From assembly GCA_965368975.1 (NCBI GenBank), contig CBDUPA010000002.1:480001-544000 (forward strand): 64,000 nucleotides of DNA, in the 5' to 3' direction. The notes below the pieces were generated by a model. That model was not told the origin of the DNA. It did no database searches and saw nothing but the letters and a program-made list of their open reading frames with translations. The DNA is from an uncultured bacterium. Lineage in GTDB: Bacteria; Acidobacteriota; Thermoanaerobaculia; Multivoradales; JAHZIX01. How positions within the stretch are numbered: the stretch's first letter is position 1; each line of letters begins with the position of its first letter. Below are positions 9,013-63,788 of this stretch, piece after piece. The position numbers were made by a program, and so were the translations under genes.

Positions 9013-9034
9013 AGCAACTCCTCTGCATTGCGAT

Positions 9035-10288
9035 TCAATCCACTCGTACGCGTGCACCGTCCACCAACTCGACGGGTGGATCGACGACCACTCGGTCGGC
9101 CGCGGTGACCCCCGCCAGCACCACGACGCGCTCGCCGCGTCCAGCGCCACCGCGCTCGGCTCCGAGACGCACCGCGCGCCGCTCGACTCGATCCCCGCGC
9201 AGCACGAAGACGACTTGCGCTCCATTCTCGTCGCGCACCGCGGCGCTCGGCATCAACAGCTCAGACGACGCCTCGGCGCTGGTGTCAGCGCTCTCAGCCT
9301 CGCTCTCGGCATCCAGGAAAGCAACCTTGATCCCCATGTCCGGCAGGATGCGAGCGTCCAGTTCCTGGAAGCGGATACGCACCATCACCGTCGCCTTCTG
9401 CCGGTCGGCGGTGGGCACCGGAGTGATGACTTCTGCCGGTATCTGCCAGTCGGGGTAGGCATCGAGCGTCGCCAACACGGGCTGGCCCGATTGCACGCGG
9501 TTGATATACGCCTCGTTGACATCGACCTCGATCTCCAGCGAGCTCATGTCGACGACGGTACAGACACCGGTTCGAGTGAAACCACCGCCGGCACTGACCG
9601 GCGAGATCATCTCGCCCGGCTGCGCGTCCTTGGTCACCACGACACCATCGAAGGGCGCCCGAATCACAGTGTCCTCCAGCTCTTGCTGGCGCAGGGCCAA
9701 ACGGCCAGCGGCGACGTCGATCTGCTGCCGGGCCTGCTCGAGTCGGGCCTGGAGCGCGTCCACTTCGGCCTGAGCGCGGTCCAGTTCGGCACGCGCCGAG
9801 GCGTCGGCCGCGGTCAGCCGCTGCTGGCGGCCCAGCTCCAGGCGGGCCTCGTCCAACCGCACCTCGATCTCGGGCAGGACCCGGTGCGCGGCGTCCAGCT
9901 CAGCACGCGCCAGGGTCAGCTGACGCTGCACCGTGCTGGCGTCGAGGCGCGCCAGAACCTGCCCTTGACGCACCGCCAGACCCTCGTCGACCAGCACCTC
10001 GACAATCTTCCCTGTCACCTTGGACGAAACGACCGCGCGACGCCGTGCGGTGACGTAGCCGGAAGCGTCGAGCACTGCTCCGGCGGCGGCCGCCTGGTCC
10101 GCGCTGACCTCGACCACTGCCGCGGTCTCCACTGGCAACACCGGGGGCCGCTGCCACCAGTACCAAACCGCGGCCGCCAGCACGGCGACCAGCAGCAGCC
10201 CGACCCAGAGGCCGGTCCGAGACCGTCTCGACGTGTCTTCGTCGGAGCGGTCGATACGCAGATCGTCGATCGAAGGTGTACTGGCCAT
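9035..10288 (-). CDS. Efflux membrane-fusion (periplasmic adaptor) protein
   Basis: N-terminal TM helix, lipoyl-like halves (SSKVTGKI, IRAPFDGVV) flanking a coiled hairpin; first gene of the ABC operon. Confidence 0.9.
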   Translation of the reverse strand: MASTPSIDDLRIDRSDEDTSRRSRTGLWVGLLLVAVLAAAVWYWWQRPPVLPVETAAVVEVSADQAAAAGAVLDASGYVTARRRAVVSSKVTGKIVEVLVDEGLAVRQGQVLARLDASTVQRQLTLARAELDAAHRVLPEIEVRLDEARLELGRQQRLTAADASARAELDRAQAEVDALQARLEQARQQIDVAAGRLALRQQELEDTVIRAPFDGVVVTKDAQPGEMISPVSAGGGFTRTGVCTVVDMSSLEIEVDVNEAYINRVQSGQPVLATLDAYPDWQIPAEVITPVPTADRQKATVMVRIRFQELDARILPDMGIKVAFLDAESEAESADTSAEASSELLMPSAAVRDENGAQVVFVLRGDRVERRAVRLGAERGGAGRGERVVVLAGVTAADRVVVDPPVELVDGARVRVD

Positions 10289-47991: not shown

Positions 47992-50931
47992 CTACCCGCC
48001 CAACGGCGCTGGCCGACCGACCCAATACCCCTGCGCGAAATCGATCCCGATCTCTTCCAGGATGTGGTAAATCGCCTCGTTCTCGACGTACTCGGCGATC
48101 GTATGGATTCCCAGCACCTCGCCGATCCGGCGGATCGATTCGACCAGCGTGCGGTGCAGCTTGCTGGGGTCGTGCGTCAGCGTGCGCACGAACTCGCCGT
48201 CAATCTTGATGAAGTCGACCGGTAGATTGCGCAGGTAGGCGAAAGAGCTGACGCCGGTGCCGAAGTCGTCGAGGGCGAAACGACATCCCAGGTCGCGCAG
48301 CACGGAGAAGAACAGCGAGGCGCGCGCCAGGTTGCTGATCGCCGCCGTCTCGGTGATCTCGAAGCACACGCGCGTCGGGTCGACGCCGCTTTTCTTGAGC
48401 GCATCGGTGATGTCTTCGAGGAAGTTCTCTTCACTCAGGGACTGCCCCGAGATATTGATCGCCAGCGCCTGCTCCAGCCCTTTGCCCTCGCGGTGGTCGG
48501 CAAGCCAGCCGAGAGCCGTGTGCACGACCCAGCGATCGATGCGCGACACCAGGCGGTACTTCTCAGCGGCAGGAATGAAGGCACCTGGGGCCACGAGCTC
48601 GCCGTCCTGGTCGATCAGGCGCACGAAGACCTCGCTCAGCTGGAACGGGAACTTCCGCCCGTCGGTGCCACGGATCGGCTGGATCGGCTGTGCGTAGAGA
48701 CAGAGCCGGCCTTCCTCGATCGCCTGCGGAATGCGATGCAGCCACTGCAACTCACCGTGACGAGCCGCCAGCGCCGAGTCCTCGGGCTGATAGTTGTGCA
48801 GCCGGTCGCCGCCCCTGTCCTTGGCCACAAAGCAGGCGCTGTCGACGGCACGCAGAACCTCGGTGACGCTGCTCTGCTCACCAGCCACGGCCACCAGGCC
48901 AATGCTGGCGGTACACGTGAAGACTCTCTCTTCCCAGGTGAAGCGTAGGGAGCTGATATCGCGGCGCATGGCTTCCGCGAGAATCCGCGCCTGACCCGAA
49001 GAGCAGTCCTCCAGCAGAACACCGAATTCGTCGTCGCCGAGGCGGGCCAGGATGTCTCCCTCGCGCAGGCGCTGGCGCAGCAGGTCGGCGATCTGCTGCA
49101 GCATCTTGTCGCCCACATCGTGGCCGCCGGCGTCGTTGATCGCCTTGAACTCGTCCAGGTCCAGGTAGCAGACCACGTGGCGACGCCCCTCGTCGCGGGC
49201 GCTGGACAGGGCCAACTGCAGCCGGTCCTCGAACTGGTGCCGGTTGAGCAGGCCGGTGAGACGGTCATGGCTCGCCAGGTGGTCCATTTGGCGCTCCAGG
49301 CCGCGCAGCTCGCTGACGTCGCGCAGCACCAGGACGGCACCGGTGAGTAGACCCGCCTGATCGTGCACGGGGGCAACGGTGTCCCGCACGGCGCGCTCGC
49401 TGCCGTCCCGACGCACGATCAGTTTGCGCCCCGGGTACACGCGCAGCGGACGCTGGTGCAAGCAGTCGTAGACGGGATCGGGCAGTTCCTTGCGCGAGGT
49501 CTCGTCGAGCGGTCGGTACACCTCCGACAGCGGTTTGCCGAAAGCCTCCCGCTCGGCCCAACCCGTGAGGTCTTCCGCCGCCGCGTTGAGGAAGTCGATG
49601 CGACCGTTGATGTCGGTGCGTAGCACACCGTCGCCGATCGAGTCGAGCGTGACCTGCGCGCGCTCCTTCTCTTCAAACAGCGCCTCTTGCGCGCGCATGC
49701 TCTCCAGCTCGGCCCCCGCGCGAGCGCCAAAAATGCGCAGGATCGACTCGGCCGGGATGTCCGGCTTGAGCGGGGCATCGTCGAGAACTCCCAGGAATCC
49801 AAGGGGCTGATCGATCGAATCGAAGAGCGGTACGGCCAAGAAGGCCTCCGCGCGCATCTCGCGCAGGGTGCGGTCGTCGGGAAATAGCTCGTGGACGCCC
49901 GACTCGTGGATCAACAGACCGCCCTGGGCGTCCGCGATCGCTTCGAGCGCGGTGCCTTCGAGCCGCACGTCCTCTCCACTCTGGTAGTCCGTGCCCGTCC
50001 AGGCAGCGACGATCTCGGCCCGCTGCATTGACGCATCGGTGAACTTACCAACGAAGGCGTGGTGCAGTTCCAGCGCCTGCGCCAGGTAGCGCACCAGGCA
50101 GCGGAAGAAGTCCTCACCGGTGACCTCGGAAGTGCCATCGACGATCAGGCGCATCCGGTCGATCCGACGGCGCTGGTCGGAGACGTCGGAGGCGACACCG
50201 ATCAGCTGCCGCACGCGGCCTTCGCCGTCGCGCAGGGCCTGACCGTGCATCGACATCCAACGCACCTCGCCTTCAGCGTTGACGATCGGCAGCTCGAGTA
50301 CGAAGTCCACATCGTCTTTCAGAGTGCGCCGCACCGCTTGCTGTAGCGCTTGCTGGTTGGTGCCCGAGAACCGCGACAAGAACCGATCGGCGGCGCCAGA
50401 CAACGGTTCCCCTGAGAGCCCGAAGAGTTCCTGCGCGTAGTCGGAGATGGTCATCGTGCCTGCCGGCAGATCCCACTCCCAGGTGACACAGCGGCCGGCC
50501 TTCTGCGCCAGTTCCAGGCGTGCCTGGCTGCGGCGCAGAGCACGCTCGGAGTGATCCCGGCGCGTGATGTCGAAGGCCGAGGCCACGACGACGTTGCGGC
50601 CGTCCAGCTCGGTGGTCTTTGCCGTGTAGTCGACCAGCAGCTTTTCGCCGTCGCGGCGGATCAGGGGCAATTCGTAGTGGCTAGGTGTCTCTTCGTAGCG
50701 CAGCCTGGCGTTGATACGGTCGCGGACCTCGTCCTTGGACGCCTCTGGCACCAGGTCGACGGGCGAGAGCCCCTGCAGCTCGGTGAAGGAATAGCCGGTC
50801 AGGCGCTCCGCCGCCGGGTTGGCATAGTAGAACTGCTTCAGGTCAAAGATGAAGAAACCCGTAGTCGTCGTTTCCGCCAGTTTGCGGAACCACGATTCGT
50901 CGGCACGGGGTAGGGCTGGAGAGTCGCTCAC
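47992..50931 (-). CDS. PAS-PAS-GAF-PAS-GGDEF-EAL signalling protein
   Basis: PAS repeats; HDRLTGLLNR; ARLGDDEF; EVFVR; EITET; DDFGTG; KIDG. Confidence 0.92.
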   Translation of the reverse strand: MSDSPALPRADESWFRKLAETTTTGFFIFDLKQFYYANPAAERLTGYSFTELQGLSPVDLVPEASKDEVRDRINARLRYEETPSHYELPLIRRDGEKLLVDYTAKTTELDGRNVVVASAFDITRRDHSERALRRSQARLELAQKAGRCVTWEWDLPAGTMTISDYAQELFGLSGEPLSGAADRFLSRFSGTNQQALQQAVRRTLKDDVDFVLELPIVNAEGEVRWMSMHGQALRDGEGRVRQLIGVASDVSDQRRRIDRMRLIVDGTSEVTGEDFFRCLVRYLAQALELHHAFVGKFTDASMQRAEIVAAWTGTDYQSGEDVRLEGTALEAIADAQGGLLIHESGVHELFPDDRTLREMRAEAFLAVPLFDSIDQPLGFLGVLDDAPLKPDIPAESILRIFGARAGAELESMRAQEALFEEKERAQVTLDSIGDGVLRTDINGRIDFLNAAAEDLTGWAEREAFGKPLSEVYRPLDETSRKELPDPVYDCLHQRPLRVYPGRKLIVRRDGSERAVRDTVAPVHDQAGLLTGAVLVLRDVSELRGLERQMDHLASHDRLTGLLNRHQFEDRLQLALSSARDEGRRHVVCYLDLDEFKAINDAGGHDVGDKMLQQIADLLRQRLREGDILARLGDDEFGVLLEDCSSGQARILAEAMRRDISSLRFTWEERVFTCTASIGLVAVAGEQSSVTEVLRAVDSACFVAKDRGGDRLHNYQPEDSALAARHGELQWLHRIPQAIEEGRLCLYAQPIQPIRGTDGRKFPFQLSEVFVRLIDQDGELVAPGAFIPAAEKYRLVSRIDRWVVHTALGWLADHREGKGLEQALAINISGQSLSEENFLEDITDALKKSGVDPTRVCFEITETAAISNLARASLFFSVLRDLGCRFALDDFGTGVSSFAYLRNLPVDFIKIDGEFVRTLTHDPSKLHRTLVESIRRIGEVLGIHTIAEYVENEAIYHILEEIGIDFAQGYWVGRPAPLGG

Positions 50932-50982: not shown

Positions 50983-52122
50983 TCATAGTATCACCCGCCG
51001 AAGCGGCAAGAGACGCGCGTGAACGCCCAGCAGGCGGGCGAAGAAGTCAGGGTGCCCAGCAAGGAAGCTCAGGACAGGACGGCGCCAGGAGGCCCGGCGG
51101 TCGAGAGCGAGCACCGCGCGAGTGATCCAATCCGGCAGCCGGCGGATGCGGCGGTGGGCGCGGCCGTATGCGCGCAGGTCACCGGCACGGATGGCCTCGA
51201 CGAGGGCGAATGCCTGGTGGAACGCGAGCGCCAGGCCCTCGCCAGTGATGGCATCCAGGTAGCCACCGGCGTCGCCAACCAGGGCCAGCCGGCCCCGGTG
51301 AACCTCGCGGACCCTCTGCAGGAGAGGGCCACAACCGAGGTCGCGATGGATCGGCGCGGCCGACTGCAATCGGTCCTGGAGCTCAGGGAAGCGGGCGAGC
51401 AGGGCATCGAAGCCGCCGCCAGCCGAGCCGCTCCACAAGATAGCAACACCGACCTCGTTGGTCGCGACGGGCGTAACGTAGGCTTCAGCAGCACCGCGCC
51501 GCGAGCCGTCCTGGGCCCAGTACACCTCGACGACGTCGGTCCACGGCGCCAGGCGGAAATGGCGTCGGACACCGAACCGCTGCCGCGCACGTACCTGCGC
51601 CCGCTCTTGTACGAGGCCAGCTTGTGCCCGCAGCGGCGAGCGCAAGCCGTCGGCCGCCACCAGCCAGCGACCTCGCAGCACCTCACCCACGGCGGTCACG
51701 ACTGCCGGTCCTTCGAGGTTGTCGGGCTCAAAGCCGGTCACCTTGACGCCCCAGACCAGGTTTGCCCCCAGCTCCAGCGCCTGCTCCACCATTGCCTGGT
51801 GCAGCCGCGTGCGCCGGAGCCCGAGGCCGGCGGCCCCCCCGGGGAAGCGACCCTCGGCCACCAAGTCGCCGTCCAGATAGCGGATACCGAAAAACGGGCG
51901 ACCCTGGCCTGCGAGCCGCACGCCAAGCTCTTCGAGACGCGCGACAGCGTCGGGCATGAGACCTTCACCGCACGGCTTGTCCAGCGGTGGATGAGCGGCA
52001 CGATCGACGACCAACACGCCGAGCCCGGCTTGTCGTGCCCGGATGGCCACAGCCAGACCGGCCGGGCCGGCGCCGATGATCAGCACGTCGGTGAGCGCGA
52101 GAGCACTAGCCCGCGGCATCAT
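50983..52122 (-). CDS. FAD-dependent oxidoreductase (geranylgeranyl-reductase/SrsC/FtpE-like)
   Basis: GAGPAG, DKPCGEGL, AADGLRS and LVGDAGGYLDAITGEGL motifs. Confidence 0.85.
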   Translation of the reverse strand: MMPRASALALTDVLIIGAGPAGLAVAIRARQAGLGVLVVDRAAHPPLDKPCGEGLMPDAVARLEELGVRLAGQGRPFFGIRYLDGDLVAEGRFPGGAAGLGLRRTRLHQAMVEQALELGANLVWGVKVTGFEPDNLEGPAVVTAVGEVLRGRWLVAADGLRSPLRAQAGLVQERAQVRARQRFGVRRHFRLAPWTDVVEVYWAQDGSRRGAAEAYVTPVATNEVGVAILWSGSAGGGFDALLARFPELQDRLQSAAPIHRDLGCGPLLQRVREVHRGRLALVGDAGGYLDAITGEGLALAFHQAFALVEAIRAGDLRAYGRAHRRIRRLPDWITRAVLALDRRASWRRPVLSFLAGHPDFFARLLGVHARLLPLRRVIL

Positions 52123-53965
52123 CGGTATCCGGATCTCGGACTGCTTCGCCCTTGGGCGTAGCACGCGCCTTCAGGTAGCCGAACAAGGAACGGCCGAAGG
52201 CCGCGGCCAGCCGTAGGGACGTCACGGGGGACGGTGGGTCGAGCGTCCCTTCCAGCCACCGCCGCAGCGCCTCAGCGCGCCGCAGCTTACCCGAAGAGGT
52301 CCGCGGCAGGGTGCCCGGCGGCAACACGACAACGTCGTCCACCTGGACACCGACAACACTCAACACCGCGCGCTTGCAAGCTTGCGGTAGAGCTTGGAGC
52401 TGCTCCGGTGTCGCCGTCCGCGCCTGCTCTACGAGCAGAGCGAGCGCTTCACTCTCGGCCTCGCTGGGCAACCAACTCACGGCCACGCAGCAGCCGCGAC
52501 GCAAGCCTGGCAGATCGTCGACCGCCTGCTCGAAGTCCTGAGGTGCATAGTTGCGTCCCCGCAGGATTACCAGATCCTTGGCCCGACCAGTCAAGTAGAG
52601 CTCACCGGACAGCTGGAAGCCCAGGTCACCCGTATTGAGCCAGCCATCACGGAGCGCTTGGCGGGTCCGCTTCGGCTGCCCCAGGTAGCCACTCATGAGC
52701 GACGGACCGCGCACCCAGAGCTGACCAACCCGGCAATCCGGGAGCGATGTTCCGGCCTCATCCCGCAGCTGCAGCTGGAAGTCGGGCAGGGGCCGACCGA
52801 CGGAAACCAGTTCGACACTGTCCGTGTGTCTGTCGTCGTGCTCCGGAGCCGGCGGCACGGGAACCGCCTCTCCCTGGCACAGCGCCAGACGATCGAAACG
52901 GCGGCTACCGAAGGGCTCGGACAGCGCACTGAAGGTGACAGCCAGCGCCGCTTCAGCCAGGCCATAGACCGGCGTCAAGGCTTCTGGCCGCAGTCCCCAG
53001 CGGGCAAAGCGCTCCTGGAAGGCGCGCTGCACGGAAGCCGACACGGGCTCCGCCCCATTGAGCGCCACCCGCCAGTGCGACAGGTCGACCGGTGGCGTGC
53101 CGCTCGACCCATCCAGCTCCTCGTCGCGGATCTTCTGCACGCACAGCGAGTAGGCGAAGTTGGGAGCTGGCGACACCTGAGCCTTGGAGCGTGACAGCGC
53201 GCGCAGCCAAACCGCCGGGCGAGCAACGAAGACCTCGGGCGGAATCACTGTCAGGGTCGACGGTAGCTCCAGCGCCGCCATGACACAGCCGATGAGCCCC
53301 ATATCGTGGTAGAGCGGCAACCAGCTGACGCCGGTCGGCGGCTTGCCGTTGGTCCACCCGGCTGGCCAGAAGGCGTTCAGCCGTCGAGTCTGCGCCAGCA
53401 CGGCTCGGTGCGACAGCGCCACCGGCTTGGGGTCCACGGTGGTGCCAGAGGAGAACTGCACCAGTGCAACCTCCTCCGCCGTCGGCACGGCAAACTCGAC
53501 CGCGGCTCCCACCGTCGGTGCCGGCAGCTGCTCGAGACGGCGGCAGCCCAAGGTCGGCCCGGCGGCGGCGACAGTTTCGCCCAGCAGATGCTGCACCCGT
53601 CTCCCCGCCAGAATCAGGCGGGCCCCGGCCGCGCGCACCAGCGACGCGGTACCCCGGTGGTATTCGTCAAGACGACCGAGCCGGGCTGGCGGGTAGAGCG
53701 GTACCGGCACGCCGCCAGCCAGCACAACTCCGAAGAAGGCATCGAAGAAGTCGGTGGAGGTGGGGAAGATCAGCGCCACCTGCTCGCCGTGCTGGATGCC
53801 CAGGTGCAGGAGACCTCCAGCTACGCGACGGGCGCGCTCGACCACCTTGCTCCAAGGCAACCAGGTCTCGCGCTCGCGAGCATCGAGCAACCGCAGGCCT
53901 GCATCGTCGACCCGCGCGGCCGCGAGCAGCAGAGCCTGCAGGGTGGTGGGGCGACGGTCAGTCAT
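52106..53965 (-). CDS. Fatty acyl-AMP ligase (FAAL)
   Basis: QFSSGTTVDPK, SWLPLYHDMGLIG, PNFAY, YGLAEA, FAAL insertion and PRTSSGK motifs. Confidence 0.9.
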   Translation of the reverse strand: MTDRRPTTLQALLLAAARVDDAGLRLLDARERETWLPWSKVVERARRVAGGLLHLGIQHGEQVALIFPTSTDFFDAFFGVVLAGGVPVPLYPPARLGRLDEYHRGTASLVRAAGARLILAGRRVQHLLGETVAAAGPTLGCRRLEQLPAPTVGAAVEFAVPTAEEVALVQFSSGTTVDPKPVALSHRAVLAQTRRLNAFWPAGWTNGKPPTGVSWLPLYHDMGLIGCVMAALELPSTLTVIPPEVFVARPAVWLRALSRSKAQVSPAPNFAYSLCVQKIRDEELDGSSGTPPVDLSHWRVALNGAEPVSASVQRAFQERFARWGLRPEALTPVYGLAEAALAVTFSALSEPFGSRRFDRLALCQGEAVPVPPAPEHDDRHTDSVELVSVGRPLPDFQLQLRDEAGTSLPDCRVGQLWVRGPSLMSGYLGQPKRTRQALRDGWLNTGDLGFQLSGELYLTGRAKDLVILRGRNYAPQDFEQAVDDLPGLRRGCCVAVSWLPSEAESEALALLVEQARTATPEQLQALPQACKRAVLSVVGVQVDDVVVLPPGTLPRTSSGKLRRAEALRRWLEGTLDPPSPVTSLRLAAAFGRSLFGYLKARATPKGEAVRDPDTDDAAG

Positions 53966-54275
53966 CGGTACCTCCAGCGGCAGCGTCGATGGCCCCCGCG
54001 ATCTCCGCGGCGAGTTTCGAGCGTACCACCTCGACGAGATCGCCGACCGTTGCCAAGCCCGCTTCGTCGTCGGCGTCGAGGCAGATCTCGAAGCGATTCT
54101 CGACCTCGGCCGCCAGAGTCAGCAGGCGTAGCGAGTCGAGTTCGAGGTCCTGCACCAGGTCCATGTCGAGACGCAACTCGCCGGCCCAGTCCAAGTGCCG
54201 ACGCGCTACGTCGGTAATCGCGTCGAGGATTTCGGCCTCGTCGCCGACACTCGATCCGTTGCCGGGTACCTCCAT
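53958..54275 (-). CDS. Acyl carrier protein
   Basis: Small acidic protein with DLELDSL phosphopantetheine site. Confidence 0.9.
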   Translation of the reverse strand: MEVPGNGSSVGDEAEILDAITDVARRHLDWAGELRLDMDLVQDLELDSLRLLTLAAEVENRFEICLDADDEAGLATVGDLVEVVRSKLAAEIAGAIDAAAGGTDD

Positions 54276-54847
54276 CAGTTTCCTCCCTGGGCCGCGAAGA
54301 CCTCATCGTAGCTGCAGTAGCGTCGCAGCGCCGCTTCCTCGACCCGGATACGGTGGCGCAGCAGTAGCGCATTGGCGACGCTGAAGACCACCGCCGTCGT
54401 CCACGCGGAGTGGATCAGCGGCAACGCGAACATCTCGACTACCACCGCCAGATAGTTGGGATGGCGTAACCAGCGGAACGGTCCACCGGTCACCGGTGCA
54501 TCACCGGGCACCACGAGGACGCGCGTGTTCCAGCGTTCACCGAGCGTCGCGATGACCCAGTAGCGCAGGGCCATGGTACCAGCGAGAAGTGGCCCTGCGA
54601 TCAGCGCCAGCGCCGGGATCCACGGCCGCCCGAACCACCAAACCTCGGCCAGGCAGGCAGCGAGAAACGCCGTGTGCAACAGAACCATCACGGGGTAGTG
54701 CCCGGCTCCGGCTTCGATCCCTCCGCGTGCCCGCGCCTTGCGTTCATTGCGCTGCGCGATGCGCAGTTCGAACAAACGCTCGACGATCACCACCGCCAGC
54801 ACGGCAGTGAAGAGCCAACGACTGTCGACATCAGGCAGGAACAACAT
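54275..54847 (-). CDS. Isoprenylcysteine-carboxyl-methyltransferase-family protein (SrsB/BpsB/FtpB-like)
   Basis: GHYPVMVLLH, LGERWNTRV, GPFRWLRHPNY and RIRVEE motifs. Confidence 0.88.
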   Translation of the reverse strand: MLFLPDVDSRWLFTAVLAVVIVERLFELRIAQRNERKARARGGIEAGAGHYPVMVLLHTAFLAACLAEVWWFGRPWIPALALIAGPLLAGTMALRYWVIATLGERWNTRVLVVPGDAPVTGGPFRWLRHPNYLAVVVEMFALPLIHSAWTTAVVFSVANALLLRHRIRVEEAALRRYCSYDEVFAAQGGN

Positions 54848-54967
54848 GGACGCCTGAACTTATCACTGAGCTACAGCGACGACTCCGCTCTGGTGGTGAC
54901 TTACCCTGCGTTCTACCGCTCTTACCGGCAGCGTCCGGCTCTGTACCGCCGACCGGCTGAAGTCCAT

Positions 54968-56005
54968 TCAGACCATGTACGCCACCGCGAACCCAACCTG
55001 TGCCGCCATCAGCATCAGGTACATGTGGGTCCACGACGGGTGATTCTCGGACTTGGCCAGGGAATCCGGATCTCGCAACAGCAGGTAGACGGTATAGATG
55101 CCCCACAGGGTGAGCAGGACGCTCAGTCCCAGCAGCATGGAGCCATTGCCGGTGAGAATGGGGTGCGCCGAATTCTGCGGGTCCGGCAGATAGACTCCGA
55201 GAGGAATCAGCAGCCAGGGGAAGATGAAGAAGGGGGCGATCATCCAGGCAGCTTTGCGCACGCCGTAGACGATCGGTAGCGTCTTGCAGCCACCGGCCCG
55301 ATCGCCCTCGATGTCGGCGAAGTCCTTGGTGCCCGAGGCACCGACGATGAACAAGCCAAAGATGGTGCCCAGGAACCACGGCTCGACGTACCAGATGTGC
55401 GCCACCATCGCCCAGCCGGCCACCTTGAGCAGGCAGCCGCGGGGGATCGCGATGGTCAAAGCAGCTCCGACGCCGAGCGTCTTGGTGCGGCCCAGAGCCG
55501 GCGCCGAGTAGATGAAGGTGAAGAGCATGCCGACCAGGTAGATGAAGAAGGTCTCGTGCAAGGCCAGCGGGGCACCGATCTTCTGCAGCAGCGTGTTGTA
55601 GGGATAGACAACCACAGCCCAGGTGGGAATCAACGCCAGTGCGTAGAGGATCCAGGTGAACTTCCACGCCTCGGGAACGCTCAAGGCACCGGTGACCAGC
55701 GGCCGCTCCGGCTTGTTGAGGCGGTCGATATCCAGGTCGTAGATCTGGTTGATCGCGTTCGACGCCGCGTTCATGAAGCTGGCGCACAGCGAACCGAGGG
55801 TGACCGTGAGCACGACCGACAGCGTCAGGCGGAAGTCGGGGTCCGGGTTGTGCACCGAGCCGAACGCACAGACGGCACCGGAAATGATGCCGAGCAGCGG
55901 CGGCAGCAGGGTGAACGGACGCGCCAGGCGTACATAGTGTCTGAATTTGGAGGGCCTGGCCTTGGGCTCGACAGGGGACGGGGTAGTACTCACGGTTCGA
56001 CTCAC
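54968..56005 (-). CDS. UbiA-family prenyltransferase
   Basis: RPFTL, NQIYDLDIDRLNKPERPL, YSAP and KDFADIEGD motifs; multiple TM helices. GTG start overlaps the upstream TGA. Confidence 0.9.
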   Translation of the reverse strand: MSRTVSTTPSPVEPKARPSKFRHYVRLARPFTLLPPLLGIISGAVCAFGSVHNPDPDFRLTLSVVLTVTLGSLCASFMNAASNAINQIYDLDIDRLNKPERPLVTGALSVPEAWKFTWILYALALIPTWAVVVYPYNTLLQKIGAPLALHETFFIYLVGMLFTFIYSAPALGRTKTLGVGAALTIAIPRGCLLKVAGWAMVAHIWYVEPWFLGTIFGLFIVGASGTKDFADIEGDRAGGCKTLPIVYGVRKAAWMIAPFFIFPWLLIPLGVYLPDPQNSAHPILTGNGSMLLGLSVLLTLWGIYTVYLLLRDPDSLAKSENHPSWTHMYLMLMAAQVGFAVAYMV

Positions 56006-57384
56006 TGCAGCAGGACCCACATCCCGGCAGCGATCAGCGCACCGGTGAGGGTATTGAGGAAGTTGACGCTCTCGTTGTCCAGCAGGCCGCGTTTCTCCAG
56101 CGTCGAGCCGACCAGGCTTTCCAGCACGGTGCCCAGGAAGGCCGCAACGACGACGATACCGGCCCCCAGCCAACCGAACAGGCCGACCTGCACACCCAGT
56201 GCGGCGAGCAGCGCCGACGCGGCGATTCCCGCCAGCGTTCCTTCCAGCGATACCGCACCTTCGGTCCCCCGCGGTACCGGGCGGAAGGTGGTGAGCAGGA
56301 AGGTGCGCCGACCGTAGAGCTGGCCGATCTCACTGCCAGCAGTATCCGCGACGGCCGTGGCGAAAGCACCCGCGAGACCGAGAACGAAGAGTTCGTAGTG
56401 GTTCGTGGCAACGGCGAAGACGGCGCACGCGACGGCGACACCGGTGTTGGCCAGAGCATGCCGGGCACCTCGGCGACCGCCCTGCTCCTGCGCCAGGTTG
56501 TCCTTCGCCTTGCGCTGATAGCCGAGCTTGGTGCAGGCGGTTCCCAGCACGAAGAAGGCCACGAGCATGGAAAAGCCCGCCCAGCCCAACGCTCCGTAGA
56601 GCAAGGTGCCGAGCAGAACGCCAGCGATGACACCTGAGATGTCGACCGAGCGAGCGGCGAAGGCCATGCCGGCGAGCACGAGGTTGACGACCAGGCCGAT
56701 CAGTAGACGACTCGAGAGGTCCGGATCTGCCAGCACGGCTTGCCAATGCCCCTGGGTGAGCAGCAGGCAGAACAGAAAGAGGCCGGTGAGGAGAGGCACG
56801 CCGAAGTTGTCGTCCAGGCCCTGCGGCAGCGACTCGAGCGCCGCCGACAGCAACGCCGCGCCAGCGGCGACGACGAGGGCGAAGGCCCAGCTGTACTGGA
56901 TCGTCTCGGAATCGGCTACCGTCCAGCGCAGCAGAATGGCAGCGGCGGCAGTGCCGAAGAGCCAGTGTGCCAGGCTACCGGCCCAGCTCTTGTCCGAGTT
57001 CCACGGCAACTTGGCGCGACCCAGGGTCATGCCGACCACCGATGCCATGCCGTCACCGAAGGCGAGGATGCCCCACACTGCGGCGGCAACTTCCAGCCGC
57101 TGGTGGAAGATCAAGATCAGCAGCAGCACAGCCAGCGGATAGAGCACGATGCCCATCGACCGACCACGCTCGGCCTCCTCTTGGCGCCACAACGCCTTGC
57201 CACCGACGCGCGGCAGGACGAAAGCGTTGAACACAACCGCCGTCAGCGCGCACAGCGCCGACCACAGTGGCCCAAGGAAACGCAGGCTGAAGGCGATCAG
57301 GCCCACCGACATGTGGACCACCTTGCGCGCCAGTTCACCCCTGCTCAGTGGTGCCGGGGAATCTGAAGTCAACGAGCTTGCCAT
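56002..57384 (-). CDS. Fusion of CTP-dependent prenol/phytol-kinase-like domain and DUF92 (VTE6-like) domain
   Basis: N-half ELARKVVH, GDGMASVVG, KSWAGS, DDN; C-half ADTAGSEIG, GTEGAVSLEGT, ESLVG, NESVNF. Confidence 0.8.
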   Translation of the reverse strand: MASSLTSDSPAPLSRGELARKVVHMSVGLIAFSLRFLGPLWSALCALTAVVFNAFVLPRVGGKALWRQEEAERGRSMGIVLYPLAVLLLILIFHQRLEVAAAVWGILAFGDGMASVVGMTLGRAKLPWNSDKSWAGSLAHWLFGTAAAAILLRWTVADSETIQYSWAFALVVAAGAALLSAALESLPQGLDDNFGVPLLTGLFLFCLLLTQGHWQAVLADPDLSSRLLIGLVVNLVLAGMAFAARSVDISGVIAGVLLGTLLYGALGWAGFSMLVAFFVLGTACTKLGYQRKAKDNLAQEQGGRRGARHALANTGVAVACAVFAVATNHYELFVLGLAGAFATAVADTAGSEIGQLYGRRTFLLTTFRPVPRGTEGAVSLEGTLAGIAASALLAALGVQVGLFGWLGAGIVVVAAFLGTVLESLVGSTLEKRGLLDNESVNFLNTLTGALIAAGMWVLLQ

Positions 57385-58292
57385 AGCTCCTCCAGCGCTT
57401 GATCGAGGTCTCGCCGCGGCTGCCAGCCGAGCGCACGCAGGCGGCTGGCGTCACCCTGTAGCAGGGGGATGTCGACCGGCCGCACGCGCTCGGGATCCAC
57501 CTCGACGCGCACCTGTTGGCCGGAACGGGCGATCAGCCGATGCAGTGCTTCTTCGATCGAGACGACCTGGCCACTGGCAAGGTTGTAGACGGTTCCCGCC
57601 TCGTCCTTCTCCGGCCCTGCATCTTCGAGAAGAGTCCGGTAGCCGGCGACAGCATCCCCGACATGCAGGAAGTCCCGGCGCGCTTCCAGGTTACCGACAC
57701 GCAGCACCGGCTCCTGCTCACCACGTTCGATCGCCGCCAGCTGGCGGGTGAACGCGGGCAAGGCGAAGTGCGGACTCTGACCGGGCCCAACGGCATTGAA
57801 GCTACGCACCACGATCGCTCCCGCGGCCAGCGCCAAGCGCTCGGCTGCGGCTTTGGTGAGGGCATAGGGACTGGCCGGCGACAGCGTATGCGTCTCGGCA
57901 ATCGGTTGCTCGTCCTCGGGAACCAGACCATAGACCTCGGCGCTGGAAGCGACGATCACCCGCCGCCCGGGAACACCCGCGGCGGCGGCGGCGGCGAGCA
58001 GATGCTCGGTGCCGAGCACGTTGGCACTGAAGCACTCGGGCAGGTGGCTCCACGACGAACCGACGTGGCTCCAGCCCGCCAGGTGCACCACGGCATCGGG
58101 CGCCGCCTCGGTGAGTGCCGCGGTCAGCGAGTCGGCCTCGGTGATGTCCACCCCCCACAGCTCGGGAACGTCGTCCACCAAGTGCGGGCCAGTGCCCAGG
58201 TAGCTGCCGCACACATCGTGACCGTGCGCGACCAGCTCGCGCGTCAGGTGCCCGCCAACGAAGCCACCGATGCCGGTGACGAATACCTTCAA
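57369..58292 (-). CDS. GMD/RMD-family NDP-sugar reductase/dehydratase (extended SDR)
   Basis: GIGGFVG, SSAEVYG, YALTK, FNAVGPGQ and GNLEARRDF motifs. Confidence 0.82.
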   Translation of the reverse strand: MKVFVTGIGGFVGGHLTRELVAHGHDVCGSYLGTGPHLVDDVPELWGVDITEADSLTAALTEAAPDAVVHLAGWSHVGSSWSHLPECFSANVLGTEHLLAAAAAAGVPGRRVIVASSAEVYGLVPEDEQPIAETHTLSPASPYALTKAAAERLALAAGAIVVRSFNAVGPGQSPHFALPAFTRQLAAIERGEQEPVLRVGNLEARRDFLHVGDAVAGYRTLLEDAGPEKDEAGTVYNLASGQVVSIEEALHRLIARSGQQVRVEVDPERVRPVDIPLLQGDASRLRALGWQPRRDLDQALEELWQAR

Positions 58293-59254
58293 CTCACCCC
58301 CAGTTGCTGGCGCCAGTAGTCGAGGGTGTCGCGCAGCGTCTGGTCGAAAGGCACCTGCGGTTCCCAGCCGGTGTCGGCGCGGAACTTGGAGCTATCACCG
58401 ATCAGGATCTCGACATCGGACGGCCGCATGCGCTCTGGATCCGGCTCGACCTTGACGTCGACCTGGCTCATGGCCAGCAGGCGATCGAGCAGCTCGCGGA
58501 TAGTGATGCCGTTGCCGGTGGCGATGTTGTACACCTCACCTGGCTTGGCCTTGGTCACCGCCAGCCAGTACGCGCGCACCATGTCACGCACGTCGGTGAA
58601 GTCGCGCACAGCGTCCAGATTGCCGACGCGGATCACCGGCTCCTGGCGGCCTGCCTCGATACTGGCGATCTGCTTGGCGAAGTTGGATGTCACGAAGACA
58701 TCGCCGCGTCGCGGTCCAGTGTGGTTGAAACCGCGCGTACGGATCGCCTTGATGCCATAGCTCATGAAGTACTGGTAGCCCAGCATGTCCTGGCCCACCT
58801 TGGAGACGGCGTAGGGCGACAGCGGGCGCAACGGGTTGGTCTCCTTGATCGGCACCTCGTCCGGCAGTACCAGGCCGTACTCCTCGGAGGAACACGCGAG
58901 CTGGATCACCGGATCGATGCCGAGCGCGCGCACTGCCTCGAAGATGTTGGTCTGGCCGGTGATGTTGGTGCTCAGCGTCTCGGACGGCGCATTCCAGCTG
59001 GTAGGCACGAAACTCTGGGCCGCCAGATGGAAGATGGCTTCTGGACGGATCTCGTCGAGGAGCTTGTGCACCGAGGTGGCGTCGCGCAGGTCGCCTTCGC
59101 GCAGCTGCAGCTTGCCGTCCAGGTGCGCAATATTGTCCATGCGACTGCGCCAGCGGTAGGTGCCGAAGATTTCCACCTGCGGCTGCTCGGCGAGCAGGTA
59201 GTCGGCGAGGTGGGACCCGGCAAAGCCGGTGATACCGGTAATCAAGACTCTCAT
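58289..59254 (-). CDS. GDP-mannose 4,6-dehydratase/RMD-family protein
   Basis: GITGFAGSHL, HLAAQSFV, SSEEYG, YAVSK and FNHTGPRRG motifs; start MRVLITG at 59254. Confidence 0.85.
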   Translation of the reverse strand: MRVLITGITGFAGSHLADYLLAEQPQVEIFGTYRWRSRMDNIAHLDGKLQLREGDLRDATSVHKLLDEIRPEAIFHLAAQSFVPTSWNAPSETLSTNITGQTNIFEAVRALGIDPVIQLACSSEEYGLVLPDEVPIKETNPLRPLSPYAVSKVGQDMLGYQYFMSYGIKAIRTRGFNHTGPRRGDVFVTSNFAKQIASIEAGRQEPVIRVGNLDAVRDFTDVRDMVRAYWLAVTKAKPGEVYNIATGNGITIRELLDRLLAMSQVDVKVEPDPERMRPSDVEILIGDSSKFRADTGWEPQVPFDQTLRDTLDYWRQQLGVS

Positions 59255-60150
59255 CAAAGGTTCCTCAAGTCGTTCAAGTACGCGGCCAAGTAAGCAGCCA
59301 GCCCCGCGCTCCACGGCTCGACACGGCGGCCGAGGAGTTCCTCGCAGCGCCGCACGTCGAGTACCGAGTAGGCGGGGCGGCGGGCGGGCCGCGGGAATTC
59401 GTCGCTGGTCACCGGTTCGACGTGCACGTCCGGCTTCCAGTATTCCACGATGGCACGGGCGAAGTCGCACCAGGAAACCGCGGGGCGGTTCTGGTAGTGC
59501 AGGATACCGGTGGCGTCGGTCGTGCCCAGATCGAGCAGGGCACGGGCCAGAAACTCTGTGTACGTCGGACCCCCGACCTGGTCGTCGACGATGCGTAGGT
59601 TCTCGTGTCCTTGATCCATCAGCCGGATCATCGTGGTCACGAAGTTGGGACCGCCGGGTCCGAACAGCCAGCTGACACGCACTACCAGTGCATTGTCGTA
59701 GGCCAGGGCCAGTTCCTCGCCACGCAGCTTGCTGGCACCGTAGACGGAAACCGGGCCGGTAGGGTCGTCTTCACTGTAAGGGCGAAGCTCGTCACCGTCA
59801 CGGATTCCCTCGCCGCTGAAGACCCCATCTCCAGCAAACACATAGTCTGTCGACGGCTGCACCAGCCGTGCACCAGCCGCCCTCGCGGCCTCGACCACGT
59901 TGCCGATGGCGTCCCCGTTGATGCGCATCGCCGTGTCCTGCTCGCTCTCGCAAGCATCGACCTTGGTGAAGGCGGCGCAGTTCACGATCAGTGACGGTCG
60001 AAAGGTCTCGGCCCAGTAGCGTAGGCGCTCGGCGTCGGTAATGTCCGCCTGCTGTCGCGACAGGCCCAGCGCGGCCCAACCACGGGAACGGGCTTGCCGC
60101 ACCACGGCACCGCCGAGCATGCCCGTACCGCCGAACACCAAGACACGCAT
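59254..60150 (-). CDS. rfbD: dTDP-4-dehydrorhamnose reductase
   Basis: GGTGMLG, NCAAFTKVDACE, STDYVF, YGASK and ARRPAYSVLD motifs. Confidence 0.92.
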   Translation of the reverse strand: MRVLVFGGTGMLGGAVVRQARSRGWAALGLSRQQADITDAERLRYWAETFRPSLIVNCAAFTKVDACESEQDTAMRINGDAIGNVVEAARAAGARLVQPSTDYVFAGDGVFSGEGIRDGDELRPYSEDDPTGPVSVYGASKLRGEELALAYDNALVVRVSWLFGPGGPNFVTTMIRLMDQGHENLRIVDDQVGGPTYTEFLARALLDLGTTDATGILHYQNRPAVSWCDFARAIVEYWKPDVHVEPVTSDEFPRPARRPAYSVLDVRRCEELLGRRVEPWSAGLAAYLAAYLNDLRNL

Positions 60151-61235
60151 CAGGGAATCCCCACCTCGGAACTGTCGCCGAGCACGAAGCGGTAGGCCTT
60201 GGGCTTGGCACCCGTGCGTGCCAGGATCGAGTTGCGCCCCACCAGCGAGCCGTCAATGCGCAGGGGAATGTCCTCAATGCGGCACTCGGCCAGGATGATC
60301 GAGTTCTCGACCTCACAGCCACGCAGAATACAGCCCTCACCGATCGACGTGTAGGGACCGACGAACGCATTCTCCAGCCGACTGCCGGCACCGATCACCA
60401 CCGGGCCTCGCACCAGCGAGTTGACCAGCTCGACCCCCTCACCCAACTGCACGCGCCCTTCGACACGGCTCTCCTCGACACGACCGCCTTCAGGCATTGT
60501 TGTGCGGCGGTCGCCGTCCAGCGCGTCGAGCACGATGCGGTTGGCTTCCAGCATGTCCTCGGGCTTGCCGGTGTCCTTCCACCAGCCGCGCACGGTGTGC
60601 GGCTGCACGTCGAGGCCACGTTCGACCAGATCCTGGATGGCGTCGGTGATCTCCAGCTCGCCGCGTGGCGAGGGCTTGATCCGCTTGACCGACTCGAAGA
60701 TCGTGGCGTCGAACATGTAGACACCGACCAGTGCCAGATCGCTCTTCGGCTCCGCAGGCTTCTCGACCAGGCGCTGGATGCGGCCGTCCTCGGTCAGTTC
60801 AGCAACTCCGAACTGCCGCGGATCCGGTACGCGGGCCAGCAGGATCTCCGCATTGCAACCCAGCTCGCGAAACTCTTCGACCAGTGTGGTGATGCCGCCA
60901 GCGATCATGTTGTCGCCCAGGTACATGACAAAGGGCTCGCCAGCGATGAACTCCTCGGCGATCATCACCGCATGCGCCAGGCCGCGCGGGGCATCCTGGG
61001 GCAAGTAGGTCACCTGGGCGCCGAAGCGCGAGCCGTCACCGACCGCTTCGCGAATCTCGGGACCGGTTTCGCCAATGACAATACCGATGTCCGTGATGCC
61101 GGCCGCCACCACCGCCTCAATGGCGTAGAACAGCACCGGCTTGTTGGCCACCGGCACCAGCTGCTTGGCGGAAGTGTGGGTCAGCGGGCGCAGGCGGGTG
61201 CCCTTGCCTCCAGAGAGAATCAGTCCCTTCATCAT
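60150..61235 (-). CDS. rfbA: Glucose-1-phosphate thymidylyltransferase (long form)
   Basis: LSGGKGTRLRPLT, KQLVPVANKP, EKP, RGELEITD and WKDTG motifs; C-terminal hexapeptide repeats. Confidence 0.92.
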   Translation of the reverse strand: MMKGLILSGGKGTRLRPLTHTSAKQLVPVANKPVLFYAIEAVVAAGITDIGIVIGETGPEIREAVGDGSRFGAQVTYLPQDAPRGLAHAVMIAEEFIAGEPFVMYLGDNMIAGGITTLVEEFRELGCNAEILLARVPDPRQFGVAELTEDGRIQRLVEKPAEPKSDLALVGVYMFDATIFESVKRIKPSPRGELEITDAIQDLVERGLDVQPHTVRGWWKDTGKPEDMLEANRIVLDALDGDRRTTMPEGGRVEESRVEGRVQLGEGVELVNSLVRGPVVIGAGSRLENAFVGPYTSIGEGCILRGCEVENSIILAECRIEDIPLRIDGSLVGRNSILARTGAKPKAYRFVLGDSSEVGIP

Positions 61236-61368: not shown

Positions 61369-63711
61369 TCAGTTGGTCAGTTCCAGGAAGGTGCCGACGT
61401 TCTTCAGCGTCAGCGAAAAGCGGAACTCGTCTTCCAGTTCGTTGCGGTCCAGCAGCTCACGATATTCGAGCATGAAACCGTAGCACTCGCCGGTGTAGTT
61501 CAGAATGTAGCGCTGCTGCTGACGCTCGCTCTTCTCGAGATCGTAGACCAAGTCGGTCTGCAGCTTCAGGCGGCGCGGCAGCAGGTTCAGCGAGGTACCG
61601 AAGCGCAGCTGGTCAGAGTTACGCTCGCCGGTCTCGGCATTCCAGCGCGTGCGCCAGGACAGCGACACCAGGTTGTTGCCCGGCAGCCCAACGGTACCGG
61701 ACAGCGAGGTCGAGGTGATCTGGCTGAACAGCAGGCTGTAGTCGACGTCGGCGGTCAGGCTGGTGGCGTCGCTGGGGTTGAAGCGCAGGCGCGTGCGCAA
61801 CGGTCCAGCCTGGTCTTCCAACAAGCCATCGGCGCTGCGTTCGAGGGGCCGCAGATCGTCGAAGCTGTAAGCACGTGAGAGTTCCAAGGAGAGAATCTCG
61901 CGGGCGCTCGGCTCGATCACCGGCACCGGCTCGGCACCTTCTTCCGCCTCTTCCGCCCCCTCCTCCGGCATCGCTGCCGGCTTGGGTCGAGGCTTGGCAA
62001 GCAGCCGGTTGACCAGGGCGACACGGCCGATGTTGGCCTGACCGACGTTGTCGACCTCGTCGAACAGCGGCACCAGCGCGCGGTCGTCGTACTCTTCTTG
62101 GTAGGTGTAGGTGAAGCGTGGCTCGACGACATGCTTGAACTTGCTGAAGCGACCGTCCTCGGACTCGAAGATGCGCGAGAACGACGGCCCCACCAGCTCG
62201 GCCTCACCGAAGGCATAGGAGCGCGACAGAGTGTCGCCGGAGAAGCTGGCGCCGCCCGGCTCGAGGCTGTCGCCCCACCAGGTGTAGCGGCTGCCGGCGG
62301 TCATCGACAGCGACAACCACGGTGCGAGGCGTACCGGCAGCTGCAGCTGCGGGAAGAGATCGAAGCGGCCGTACTGGGCATCCAGGTTGGCGTTGCGGTC
62401 GACATCGAGCAGGGAGAGTGAACTCTCCATCTTGACGAACAGCGGCACCTTGTCGAACAGCTGGAAGGCGCGCAGCCGATACTCCAGCTCCGGTAGGCGC
62501 TGCATCACGACGTCCTGGGCGCCGGTGATGAAGGTCTTGCGACGATCGACCAGCATGTTGAACGAGTGTGGCCCCCAGTTGCCGCTCAGGTAGCCGCGCG
62601 ACTCGGTGGAACGCGTCGTACTGTTGCCGACACCGCGTTCGAACTCGCGGAACCACTCGAAGTCCGAATACTCGCGCACCGTGACGACACCGCGCAGCCC
62701 CCAGGGCAGATCGGTGGTGGAGTGGTCGAGATTGGCCTTCCAGCGCCAGTCGTCGGACTCGGGGTCGCGGATGGTGTACGCCCGCATCTCGCCCTGCGTG
62801 CCCTCGCTCGGATTCCAGCGCAGCTCGTTGCCAAGACCGTAGTAGTTCTCGCTGTAGTAGTCGGCGTGGAAGGTGGTGTCCCAGCTGCGGCCCATGGGCA
62901 GGAAATACGCTAGCCCCAGGTAGCCACCGCGACGACTCGAGTAGCCGATGTTGGGCACCAGCAGGCCACGCGAGCGTTCCGGTTTGACCGGCCACACCAT
63001 GTAGGGCAGGTAGAACACCGGCAACTTCTTGGCCCGCATGCTGGCGCCGCGGATACGCGCGTAGCCGTCGACCTCGATGTCCGCTTCCTTGACGTGGAAG
63101 CTCCAGGCCGGCGCTTCGCCTTCGCAGGAGGTGAACATACCGTTGAGTACCCGGTAGGTGTCGTCCCCGGTCTTGGTCACCTCTTCACCCTTGAAGTAGA
63201 AGTCCGGGTCGACGTAAGCGCTGGCGCTCTGCACGGTACCGGTCTTGGTCTCCAGGTCGAAGGTCAGCGAGGTACCGGACAGGCGGCGCGGTCCCTGGTC
63301 CAGGATCACGTTGCCCACCGCCGTCACTTCCTTGGTCGCCAGGTTGACGTCCACCTGATCGGCCTGCAGCTTCAAGTCCTGGTAGCGCACCTCGACGCCG
63401 CCGCGCAACACGGCGAAGTCGGCCCCCCGATAGGAAATGCTGCCGGCGGAACCAGCCGCGGAACCGCCGCCCTGCTCGGGCGGAAAGGAGAGGTCGAAGC
63501 TGACGCGGTCGCGGTCGGGGATCTCGGTTGGCGCTTCCTCTGAGGCTTCAGACACGTCTGCGGCCGGTGCTTGCTCGGGCGGTGCCGGCTCGGGCGGTGC
63601 CGCCTCGGGAGCGGGCTCTTGGCCGAGCACGGCCGGGGCGTCGAGAAACAGGCCCAGGCAGACGCCCAAGGCGAGCAGGGACCGGGTGATCTGGAATGTC
63701 GTGCAGCGCAT
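61369..63711 (-). CDS. lptD: LPS-assembly outer-membrane protein LptD
   Basis: Signal peptide; OstA-like N-domain (LQADQV, FTSC...P.W); RGLLVPNIG; HVVEP; C-terminal barrel. ATG at 63711 with GAGGAG RBS. Confidence 0.85.
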   Translation of the reverse strand: MRCTTFQITRSLLALGVCLGLFLDAPAVLGQEPAPEAAPPEPAPPEQAPAADVSEASEEAPTEIPDRDRVSFDLSFPPEQGGGSAAGSAGSISYRGADFAVLRGGVEVRYQDLKLQADQVDVNLATKEVTAVGNVILDQGPRRLSGTSLTFDLETKTGTVQSASAYVDPDFYFKGEEVTKTGDDTYRVLNGMFTSCEGEAPAWSFHVKEADIEVDGYARIRGASMRAKKLPVFYLPYMVWPVKPERSRGLLVPNIGYSSRRGGYLGLAYFLPMGRSWDTTFHADYYSENYYGLGNELRWNPSEGTQGEMRAYTIRDPESDDWRWKANLDHSTTDLPWGLRGVVTVREYSDFEWFREFERGVGNSTTRSTESRGYLSGNWGPHSFNMLVDRRKTFITGAQDVVMQRLPELEYRLRAFQLFDKVPLFVKMESSLSLLDVDRNANLDAQYGRFDLFPQLQLPVRLAPWLSLSMTAGSRYTWWGDSLEPGGASFSGDTLSRSYAFGEAELVGPSFSRIFESEDGRFSKFKHVVEPRFTYTYQEEYDDRALVPLFDEVDNVGQANIGRVALVNRLLAKPRPKPAAMPEEGAEEAEEGAEPVPVIEPSAREILSLELSRAYSFDDLRPLERSADGLLEDQAGPLRTRLRFNPSDATSLTADVDYSLLFSQITSTSLSGTVGLPGNNLVSLSWRTRWNAETGERNSDQLRFGTSLNLLPRRLKLQTDLVYDLEKSERQQQRYILNYTGECYGFMLEYRELLDRNELEDEFRFSLTLKNVGTFLELTN

Positions 63712-63788
63712 GCCGCTCCTCACGGTTCGCTCCCCGGCGGGGAGATCAGGGTTTTGAACTGCCGTGATGCTACCACCGGGGCGGGTGC

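Follow-up and report, generated by a model that had tools for sequence, protein, structure and literature searches.

The DNA considered here is a stretch of 64,000 nucleotides (positions 480,001 to 544,000 of contig CBDUPA010000002.1, assembly GCA_965368975.1), hereafter called the window, from an uncultured bacterium of the Acidobacteriota (Thermoanaerobaculia; Multivoradales; JAHZIX01), the genome of which is 99.3% complete and 0.09% contaminated. Ten genes between positions 50983 and 61235 all lie on the minus strand and are transcribed in the order long-form RmlA, RmlD, two short-chain dehydrogenases/reductases (SDRs), a fusion of a prenol-kinase-like half with DUF92, a UbiA-family prenyltransferase and, following a 120-bp gap, a membrane methyltransferase of the ICMT family, an acyl carrier protein (ACP), a fatty acyl-AMP ligase (FAAL) and an FAD-dependent oxidoreductase (Table 1). 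Every junction other than that between UbiA and ICMT is overlapping or within 8 bp, and an earlier description made from the letters alone (the original prediction), which had recorded ten co-directional genes that overlap or abut except at one 120-bp gap, has been confirmed in both respects. That prediction took the ten genes to constitute a single new lipid pathway. The comparisons described below indicate instead that two independent gene sets probably abut here through a lineage-specific rearrangement, the four genes after the gap being the displaced 3' part of a phenolic-lipid operon of the ftp/srs type.

Table 1. Features of the locus in transcription order, with window coordinates and the matches on which each assignment is based.
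Feature	Position	Strand	Basis
LptD, outer-membrane lipopolysaccharide transport protein	61369..63723	-	Pfam LptD and LptD_2; upstream of the sugar genes in 16/20 relatives' loci
RmlA long form, glucose-1-phosphate thymidylyltransferase	60150..61235	-	TIGR01208 456 bits (cut-off 320); 69-75% identity in relatives
RmlD, dTDP-4-dehydrorhamnose reductase	59254..60150	-	TIGR01214 283 bits (cut-off 224)
NDP-hexose 4,6-dehydratase-like extended SDR	58289..59254	-	Pfam GDP_Man_Dehyd 289 bits; 73-81% identity in relatives
Second extended SDR, epimerase/reductase type	57369..58292	-	Pfam GDP_Man_Dehyd 193 bits and Epimerase 163 bits; no NCBIfam model over cut-off
Two-domain membrane protein, 460 aa, Sec59/VTE5-like N-half and DUF92 C-half	56002..57384	-	DUF92 193 bits, residues 233-449
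Orphan UbiA-family prenyltransferase, nearest chlorophyll synthase and archaeal DGGGP synthase	54968..55993	-	Pfam UbiA 109 bits
Junction between the modules, rearrangement breakpoint (probable)	54848..54967		120 bp; unique in genome
ICMT-family membrane methyltransferase, FtpB/SrsB type	54275..54847	-	Pfam ICMT 96 bits (cut-off 24)
ACP, 105 aa	53958..54275	-	PP-binding 29 bits (cut-off 20.8); LELDSL serine motif
FAAL	52106..53965	-	Best models are FAAL families; NCBIfam PRK09192 442 bits (under cut-off 600)
FAD-dependent oxidoreductase, SrsC/HidB/FtpE position	50983..52164	-	FAD_binding_3 64 bits

The genes downstream of the gap form a cassette resembling known phenolic-lipid systems. The closest solved relative of the FAAL is the Escherichia coli FAAL 3PBK (292 bits), with an end-to-end alignment that spans a stretch which we take to be the site of the FAAL-specific insertion. 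The flavoprotein scores 107 bits against the geranylgeranyl (GG) reductase superfamily model, under its cut-off of 158.8. A 136-aa open reading frame (ORF) at 53962-54372 represents a wrong, Arg-rich frame and not the ACP. The Myxococcus xanthus ftp operon, with genes in the order ftpA to ftpE, was reportedly described by Hayashi et al. in 2011, and the Streptomyces griseus srs genes reportedly by Funabashi et al. in 2008. The ftp operon comprises what are probably the same five functions, namely a type III polyketide synthase (PKS), an ICMT-type methyltransferase, an ACP, a FAAL and a flavoprotein, and FtpA is described as being primed by acyl-ACP made by the FAAL FtpD (PMC5707447). The present case differs from it in having the PKS on a contig other than that of the cassette, preceded by the gene for a 138-aa membrane protein. 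According to another paper, a type III alkylresorcinol synthase is accompanied by a methyltransferase and an FAD oxidoreductase in srsABC, in the cyanobacterial hidABC and in planctomycetal operons, and operons of the methyltransferase-oxidoreductase-PKS kind make alkylresorcinols (PMC10896814). The set of PKS, methyltransferase and FAD oxidoreductase is thus shared with these operons, which differ in being without the FAAL/ACP priming pair and, in the hid and planctomycetal cases, in having the order methyltransferase-oxidoreductase-PKS. A literature search combining Acidobacteria, type III polyketide synthase and alkylresorcinol found no paper with these terms in its title or abstract, the full text of papers being outside this check.

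The original prediction had pointed out that no chalcone-synthase-like ORF occurs in the window, which is correct and extends to the whole of the contig carrying it (C2), where no type III PKS was detected. It had suggested a genome-wide search for such an enzyme, and had allowed for a ring-forming step encoded elsewhere. When this search was run with PF00195, only two matches were obtained, a FabH-type KAS III on contig C7 and a single intact type III PKS on contig C11 (G000:C11:158739-159932), so that the fallback was well founded. The C11 protein, the sole type III PKS of the genome, contains both Chal_sti_synt_N (73.6 bits) and Chal_sti_synt_C (71.5 bits). Its nearest solved relative is Mycobacterium tuberculosis Pks11 (PDB 4JAO), from another phylum and another gene neighbourhood, to which it aligns over residues 43-397 with 364 bits, the motifs of the catalytic Cys, His and Asn being in register. 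The genome therefore holds three of the components by which ftp/srs systems are recognised, a PKS with Cys-His-Asn, an ICMT partner and a flavoprotein partner. Directly upstream of the PKS lies an ORF for a hydrophobic membrane protein of 138 aa (G000:C11:158432-158848; L003:9433-9849) that belongs to no Pfam family. It has been found in all 17 PKS-bearing loci of relatives, directly 5' of the PKS in 15 of them, and its gene appears to be a sixth, uncharacterised component of this phenolic-lipid operon in Acidobacteriota. Genes for a HopA1/LanC-like protein and a cysteine-dioxygenase-type cupin are also present near the C11 PKS (L003:5104-6420 and 8827-9402), and neither is kept beside the PKS in relatives' loci.

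Comparison with related genomes shows how these components are normally arranged. Forty genomes of the same order were searched as relatives, which are not independent observations, and every group was searched through a sample of its genomes; no second genome of this genus occurs in the collection examined. ICMT orthologues (45-63% identity) were found in 33 of the 40 relatives, and an orthologue of the C11 PKS was likewise found in 33, the seven genomes without the PKS being exactly the seven without a strong ICMT match. The PKS and the methyltransferase are accordingly present or missing together in all 40 relatives, although the seven fall in two families and hence represent few independent events. 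The context of ICMT was inspected at 20 relatives' loci, where the ICMT-ACP-FAAL order is intact in 19 of 19 unclipped loci, the remaining one reaching the contig edge after the ACP, and where the flavoprotein is kept at the 3' end in 18. In these same loci the PKS lies upstream of ICMT at no more than 1 kb in 15 and at 1.7 and 4.9 kb in two, and is missing from the locus in three; the PKSs beside ICMT are 63-74% identical to that on C11. Among the 33 relatives with both genes, the distance is at most 1 kb in 25, which have the PKS in the same operon, and 1.6-10.4 kb in five, while in three (G011, G026 and G039) the genes are on separate contigs, as are the C11 PKS and the C2 cassette in the present genome. 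A metagenome scan with the methyltransferase as query provided 80 further loci; a PKS lies within 1 kb upstream in 67 of the 68 that have at least 1.3 kb of upstream sequence, the other 12 being too short to judge. Flavoprotein matches occur in 53 of the 80. Matches to PKS, methyltransferase and flavoprotein with none to ACP or FAAL characterise 40 of the 80 loci, corresponding to the three-gene form known from srs and hid, which implies that three-gene and five-gene operons share one methyltransferase lineage. These 40 loci also connect the flavoprotein with the PKS, and not with the reduction of isoprenoids. The canonical operon is thus small membrane protein-PKS-methyltransferase-ACP-FAAL-flavoprotein, and the proposed match between the cassette order and ftp-type clusters holds. 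Since the 138-aa ORF is conserved before the PKS and has been retained on C11, the break in this genome can be placed precisely after the PKS gene and before that of the methyltransferase.

A cassette parted from its PKS, and from the presumed promoter of its operon, might be drifting towards loss, or might be reused without the PKS, for example with the FAAL and ACP feeding another acyl-transfer route. The modest identity to orthologues, 45-63% for ICMT and 54-62% for the FAAL, would agree with such a fate. These values are nevertheless similar to those among relatives with intact operons. All four reading frames are intact, the ACP has its serine motif, the FAAL aligns over its whole length with a solved FAAL, and the PKS, like the small gene that precedes it, is intact as well. 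Furthermore, both halves have been retained on separate contigs in G026 and in the genus to which G011 and G039 belong. An orphaned cassette is therefore considered an improbable explanation when set against a displaced operon that would still work together with its unlinked PKS.

The junction between UbiA and ICMT was inspected for signs of how it arose. The gap and its immediate surroundings, 261 bases in all, occur only once in the genome, and the fold of the gap is unremarkable (z -1.2). A consensus scan found neither promoter-like nor terminator-like sites in the 120 bp; overall, the same scan gave numbers near shuffled expectation (two promoter-like sites against 0.6 expected, six terminator-like sites against 4.9 expected). 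Nine C11 proteins (the PKS and eight flanking it) and three window proteins 3' of the cassette were searched in 40 relatives' loci, and apart from the PKS the sole match was an FAA-hydrolase adjoining the PKS in one genome (L101). As the surroundings of neither locus are shared with relatives, they gave no means of tracing the path of the rearrangement, and a single inversion relative to G003 is not supported. One could also suppose that the junction is an assembly chimera and that PKS and ICMT in fact adjoin in the canonical order, considering that positions 54156-55975 are covered by no independent read or contig. Among sequencing runs no RNA run matched, and a single soil DNA run (word share 0.06) contributed short pieces only, at 53300-54133 and 56043-56083, none of them spanning the junction. 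The G+C content also steps from about 0.64 to about 0.70 there; values near 0.70 do, however, recur elsewhere in the window. The uniqueness of the junction leaves no repeat to mediate a misjoin, and the other side of the break argues in the same direction, as the C11 PKS is followed after 98 bp by a different intact gene, deep in a contig of 248 kb. Together with the high completeness and low contamination of the assembly, these observations make a chimera very improbable, and the junction is treated here as a genuine rearrangement breakpoint.

Whether the genes on the two sides of the junction belong together was approached from several directions. For the fusion gene, window proteins were mapped onto 20-kb stretches around 20 relatives' loci. 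LptD and the sugar genes precede the fusion gene in 16 of these, and UbiA follows it directly in 13 and at 4.9 kb in one more; no ICMT, ACP, FAAL, flavoprotein or type III PKS occurs within about 9 kb of the fusion gene in any of the 20. Seven further loci obtained by scanning the genome collection with the fusion protein gave the same picture, two of them being on the same contigs as L039 and L045. In none of the 30 relatives that carry both modules are the two near each other, as they are placed on separate contigs or 136-784 kb apart on one contig, and none of the 80 metagenome loci has a UbiA or fusion-gene match near the methyltransferase. A sample of 151 genomes of the phylum, which includes this one, G063 and G088, was also examined for co-occurrence. 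The UbiA orthologue (E <=1e-40) was present in 54 and the PKS (E <=1e-50) in 25, with both in 10, UbiA alone in 44, the PKS alone in 15 and neither in 82, whereas 8.9 genomes with both would be expected under independence. UbiA and the PKS thus show no association across the sample. The original prediction, of one new pathway in which ubiA takes the position of the PKS and a prenylated, possibly glycosylated, fatty-acyl-primed lipid is made, does not survive these counts; that relatives would keep ubiA/DUF92 and the FAAL cassette unlinked was the outcome it had named in advance as speaking against it, and it is what was found. Its other proviso was a simple deletion remnant, with relatives carrying a PKS at the site of the gap. 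Taken literally this is not the case here, since the PKS has been separated from the cassette and not deleted.

Several considerations nonetheless weigh against two independent gene sets. The absence of a terminator-like site from the gap means that read-through from the UbiA operon is possible and could couple the expression of both sets. The seven relatives of the order that have no PKS cluster also have no fusion gene, a pattern that involves two families only. One distant genus (g102; G127 and G185) has the fusion-UbiA pair at 12.5-20 kb from a PKS-ICMT pair. The FAAL and the flavoprotein are both under the NCBIfam curated cut-offs, the PKS-ICMT distances come from match coordinates and not from gene calls, and no independent reads cross the junction, so that the UbiA/ICMT join rests on one assembly. 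The identities of the genes, their synteny and co-occurrence and the place of the break were observed directly; the chemistry proposed for both sets is inferred throughout.

Part of this evidence could be taken to favour a hybrid pathway, in which, after the rearrangement, one transcript would cover the cassette together with the prenol-kinase/UbiA operon and UbiA would prenylate an alkyl(hydro)quinone on oxygen or carbon, yielding a new meroterpenoid lipid. A precedent exists in the agq cluster of Actinoplanes missouriensis, which was reportedly described by Awakawa et al. in 2011 and of which AgqD is a UbiA-family member. This cluster is described as prenylating phenols derived from alkylresorcinols (PMC10896814). 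The products of its type III PKS undergo both prenylation and hydroxylation. The ten genes of the present locus are co-directional, and the nearest solved relatives of its UbiA form C-O bonds with C20 prenyl diphosphates, both of which would suit a hybrid route, as would the proximity of the modules in g102. In agq, however, the prenyltransferase is conserved in the cluster, whereas UbiA and cassette adjoin in the present genome alone; neither the relatives and metagenomes (0/30, 0/20 and 0/80) nor the phylum sample (10 against 8.9) show the prenyltransferase to be linked to the PKS genes or to co-occur with them. In g102, opposite-strand GreA and Mrp/Nuo-type genes part the fusion-UbiA pair from the PKS-ICMT-amine-oxidase set, and the proximity of the two is read as chance. 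A hybrid pathway is accordingly regarded as improbable. Equally improbable is its evolutionary variant, namely that the rearrangement placed the tailoring genes under the promoter of the prenol-kinase/UbiA operon and that UbiA now prenylates an alkyl(hydro)quinone that the unlinked PKS helps to make; were it true, the product would be a meroterpenoid membrane lipid of recent origin and would reveal a type of acceptor that the phylum-wide orphan UbiA can use. As an observation on g102 itself, fusion-UbiA is preceded there by genes for an SDR and for a type I phosphodiesterase/NPP (L122, G127:C1:2103500-2123400; L123 and L124, G185). An equivalence between this SDR and the second SDR of the window, which precedes the fusion gene, was rejected, the identity being 29% over 122 residues only.

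On the reading that two independent sets abut, the prenol-kinase/UbiA module merits description in its own right. The C-terminal half of the fusion protein belongs to DUF92/COG1836, the VTE6-type family, with a PF01940 score of 193 bits against a cut-off of 27.5, and reaches 184.5 bits with TIGR00297, under the cut-off of 205.85. For the N-terminal half, no Pfam or NCBIfam match was found even at E values up to 1, and no PDB match. Among 94 shorter homologues, JGI names eight as dolichol kinase and three as phytol kinase, and two carry PF01148; a protein atlas places it at 0.92 to a cluster labelled CTP_transf_1 (phosphatidate cytidylyltransferase family), which serves as a lead only. Judging from these homologues, the N-half seems to resemble CTP-dependent prenol kinases of the Sec59/VTE5 type. 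DUF92/COG1836 is the family of plant VTE6, a phytyl-phosphate kinase (PMC9782597), and archaeal proteins in which a Sec59-like N-terminal domain is fused to COG1836 have been described (PMC5898192). The description as a prenol-kinase/DUF92 fusion is therefore a fair name, and such a fusion is not new. What is probably the same domain pair is found in VTE5/VTE6 systems and in the archaeal fusions, here adjoining UbiA, so that the VTE5/VTE6-to-UbiA logic fits the module, with the differences that the host is a non-photosynthetic bacterium and that its UbiA passes no curated family cut-off. Matches to the fusion protein occur in 30 of the 40 relatives, and 26 have it at full length. In three genomes of one family (G027, G036 and G007; L047, L048 and L049), DUF92 occurs without the N-terminal kinase half, the match beginning at query residue ~225, and UbiA is not beside the lone DUF92 gene.

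The UbiA gene begins with GTG, 8 bp past the stop codon of the fusion gene. Its best NCBIfam matches, PRK12884 and ChlG, are both under their cut-offs, and the closest solved relatives are the chlorophyll a synthase ChlG (65 bits) and DGGGPS (58 bits). Both Asp-rich motifs (NxxxDxxxD and DxxxD) are present and aligned with those of ChlG. The genome has three other UbiA genes, for CtaB (heme O synthase), MenA and a DPPR-synthase-like protein, each over its own cut-off, on which ground an identity of the window's UbiA with any of these enzymes was rejected. An archaeal-type ether lipid, to which a DGGGPS-like UbiA and a GG-reductase-like flavoprotein might have pointed, was rejected as well, since no PcrB/GGGPS was found in the genome and the flavoprotein accompanies the PKS instead of UbiA. 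One UbiA-family protein encoded elsewhere (G000:C26:48435-49109; L121:1276-2256) scores 294 bits with the NCBIfam model for decaprenyl-phosphate phosphoribosyltransferase, above its cut-off of 234, an enzyme type known from mycobacterial arabinan synthesis.

Upstream of the fusion gene, the sugar genes belong to a block that is conserved across the order, the first gene of which, LptD, lies outside the interval covered by the original prediction. The family assignments made there were right overall, the exception being the GMD/RMD label of the two SDRs, which stands at the level of the fold only, as both are under all NCBIfam equivalog cut-offs. The first of them is under the cut-offs of the gmd, LegB and dTDP-glucose dehydratase models, with 157 bits to TIGR01181 against a cut-off of 365. 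When the locus was checked for a dTDP-L-rhamnose pathway (RmlABCD), RmlA and RmlD passed their equivalog cut-offs, and no cupin-type RmlC was found in the block, to which the search was limited, the genome not having been searched for RmlB or RmlC. In six relatives' loci (L039-L042, L045 and L051), about 1 kb of extra sequence separates the second SDR from the fusion gene; this insert is absent from the present genome and its own family. At the opposite end of the locus, a gene for a 979-aa PAS-GAF-GGDEF-EAL protein (47992-50931, minus strand) starts 51 bp after the flavoprotein gene, and no such gene was found beside either module in relatives' loci.

Taken together, a scheme can be proposed for each gene set, by analogy with Ftp, Srs and Hid in the case of the cassette. 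The FAAL would adenylate a long-chain fatty acid and load it onto the ACP; the C11 PKS would then take the acyl-ACP as starter, add malonyl units and cyclise the chain to an alkylresorcinol or alkylpyrone. The flavoprotein would hydroxylate or oxidise the ring and the membrane methyltransferase would methylate it, so that the final membrane lipid would be an alkylresorcinol or alkylquinone with a methoxy group. On this analogy, the FAAL and ACP most likely feed the unlinked PKS towards a methylated alkylresorcinol or alkylquinone. In the other set, the fusion protein probably turns a free prenol stepwise into its diphosphate, from which the ChlG/DGGGPS-like UbiA would transfer the prenyl group to an acceptor, and the sugar genes most likely provide a dTDP-6-deoxyhexose, most simply for envelope glycans.

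If two independent sets have indeed been brought together, as seems probable, what had looked like a new pathway is a phenolic-lipid operon of a widespread kind, present here in split form, and a false lead has been removed. This genome, the genus of G011 and G039, and G026 show that these operons tolerate a PKS parted from the tailoring and priming genes, which means that cluster-mining tools requiring adjacency miss such cases. The prenol-kinase::DUF92-UbiA operon, being conserved in approximately one third of the sampled Acidobacteriota, constitutes the more interesting problem of the two.

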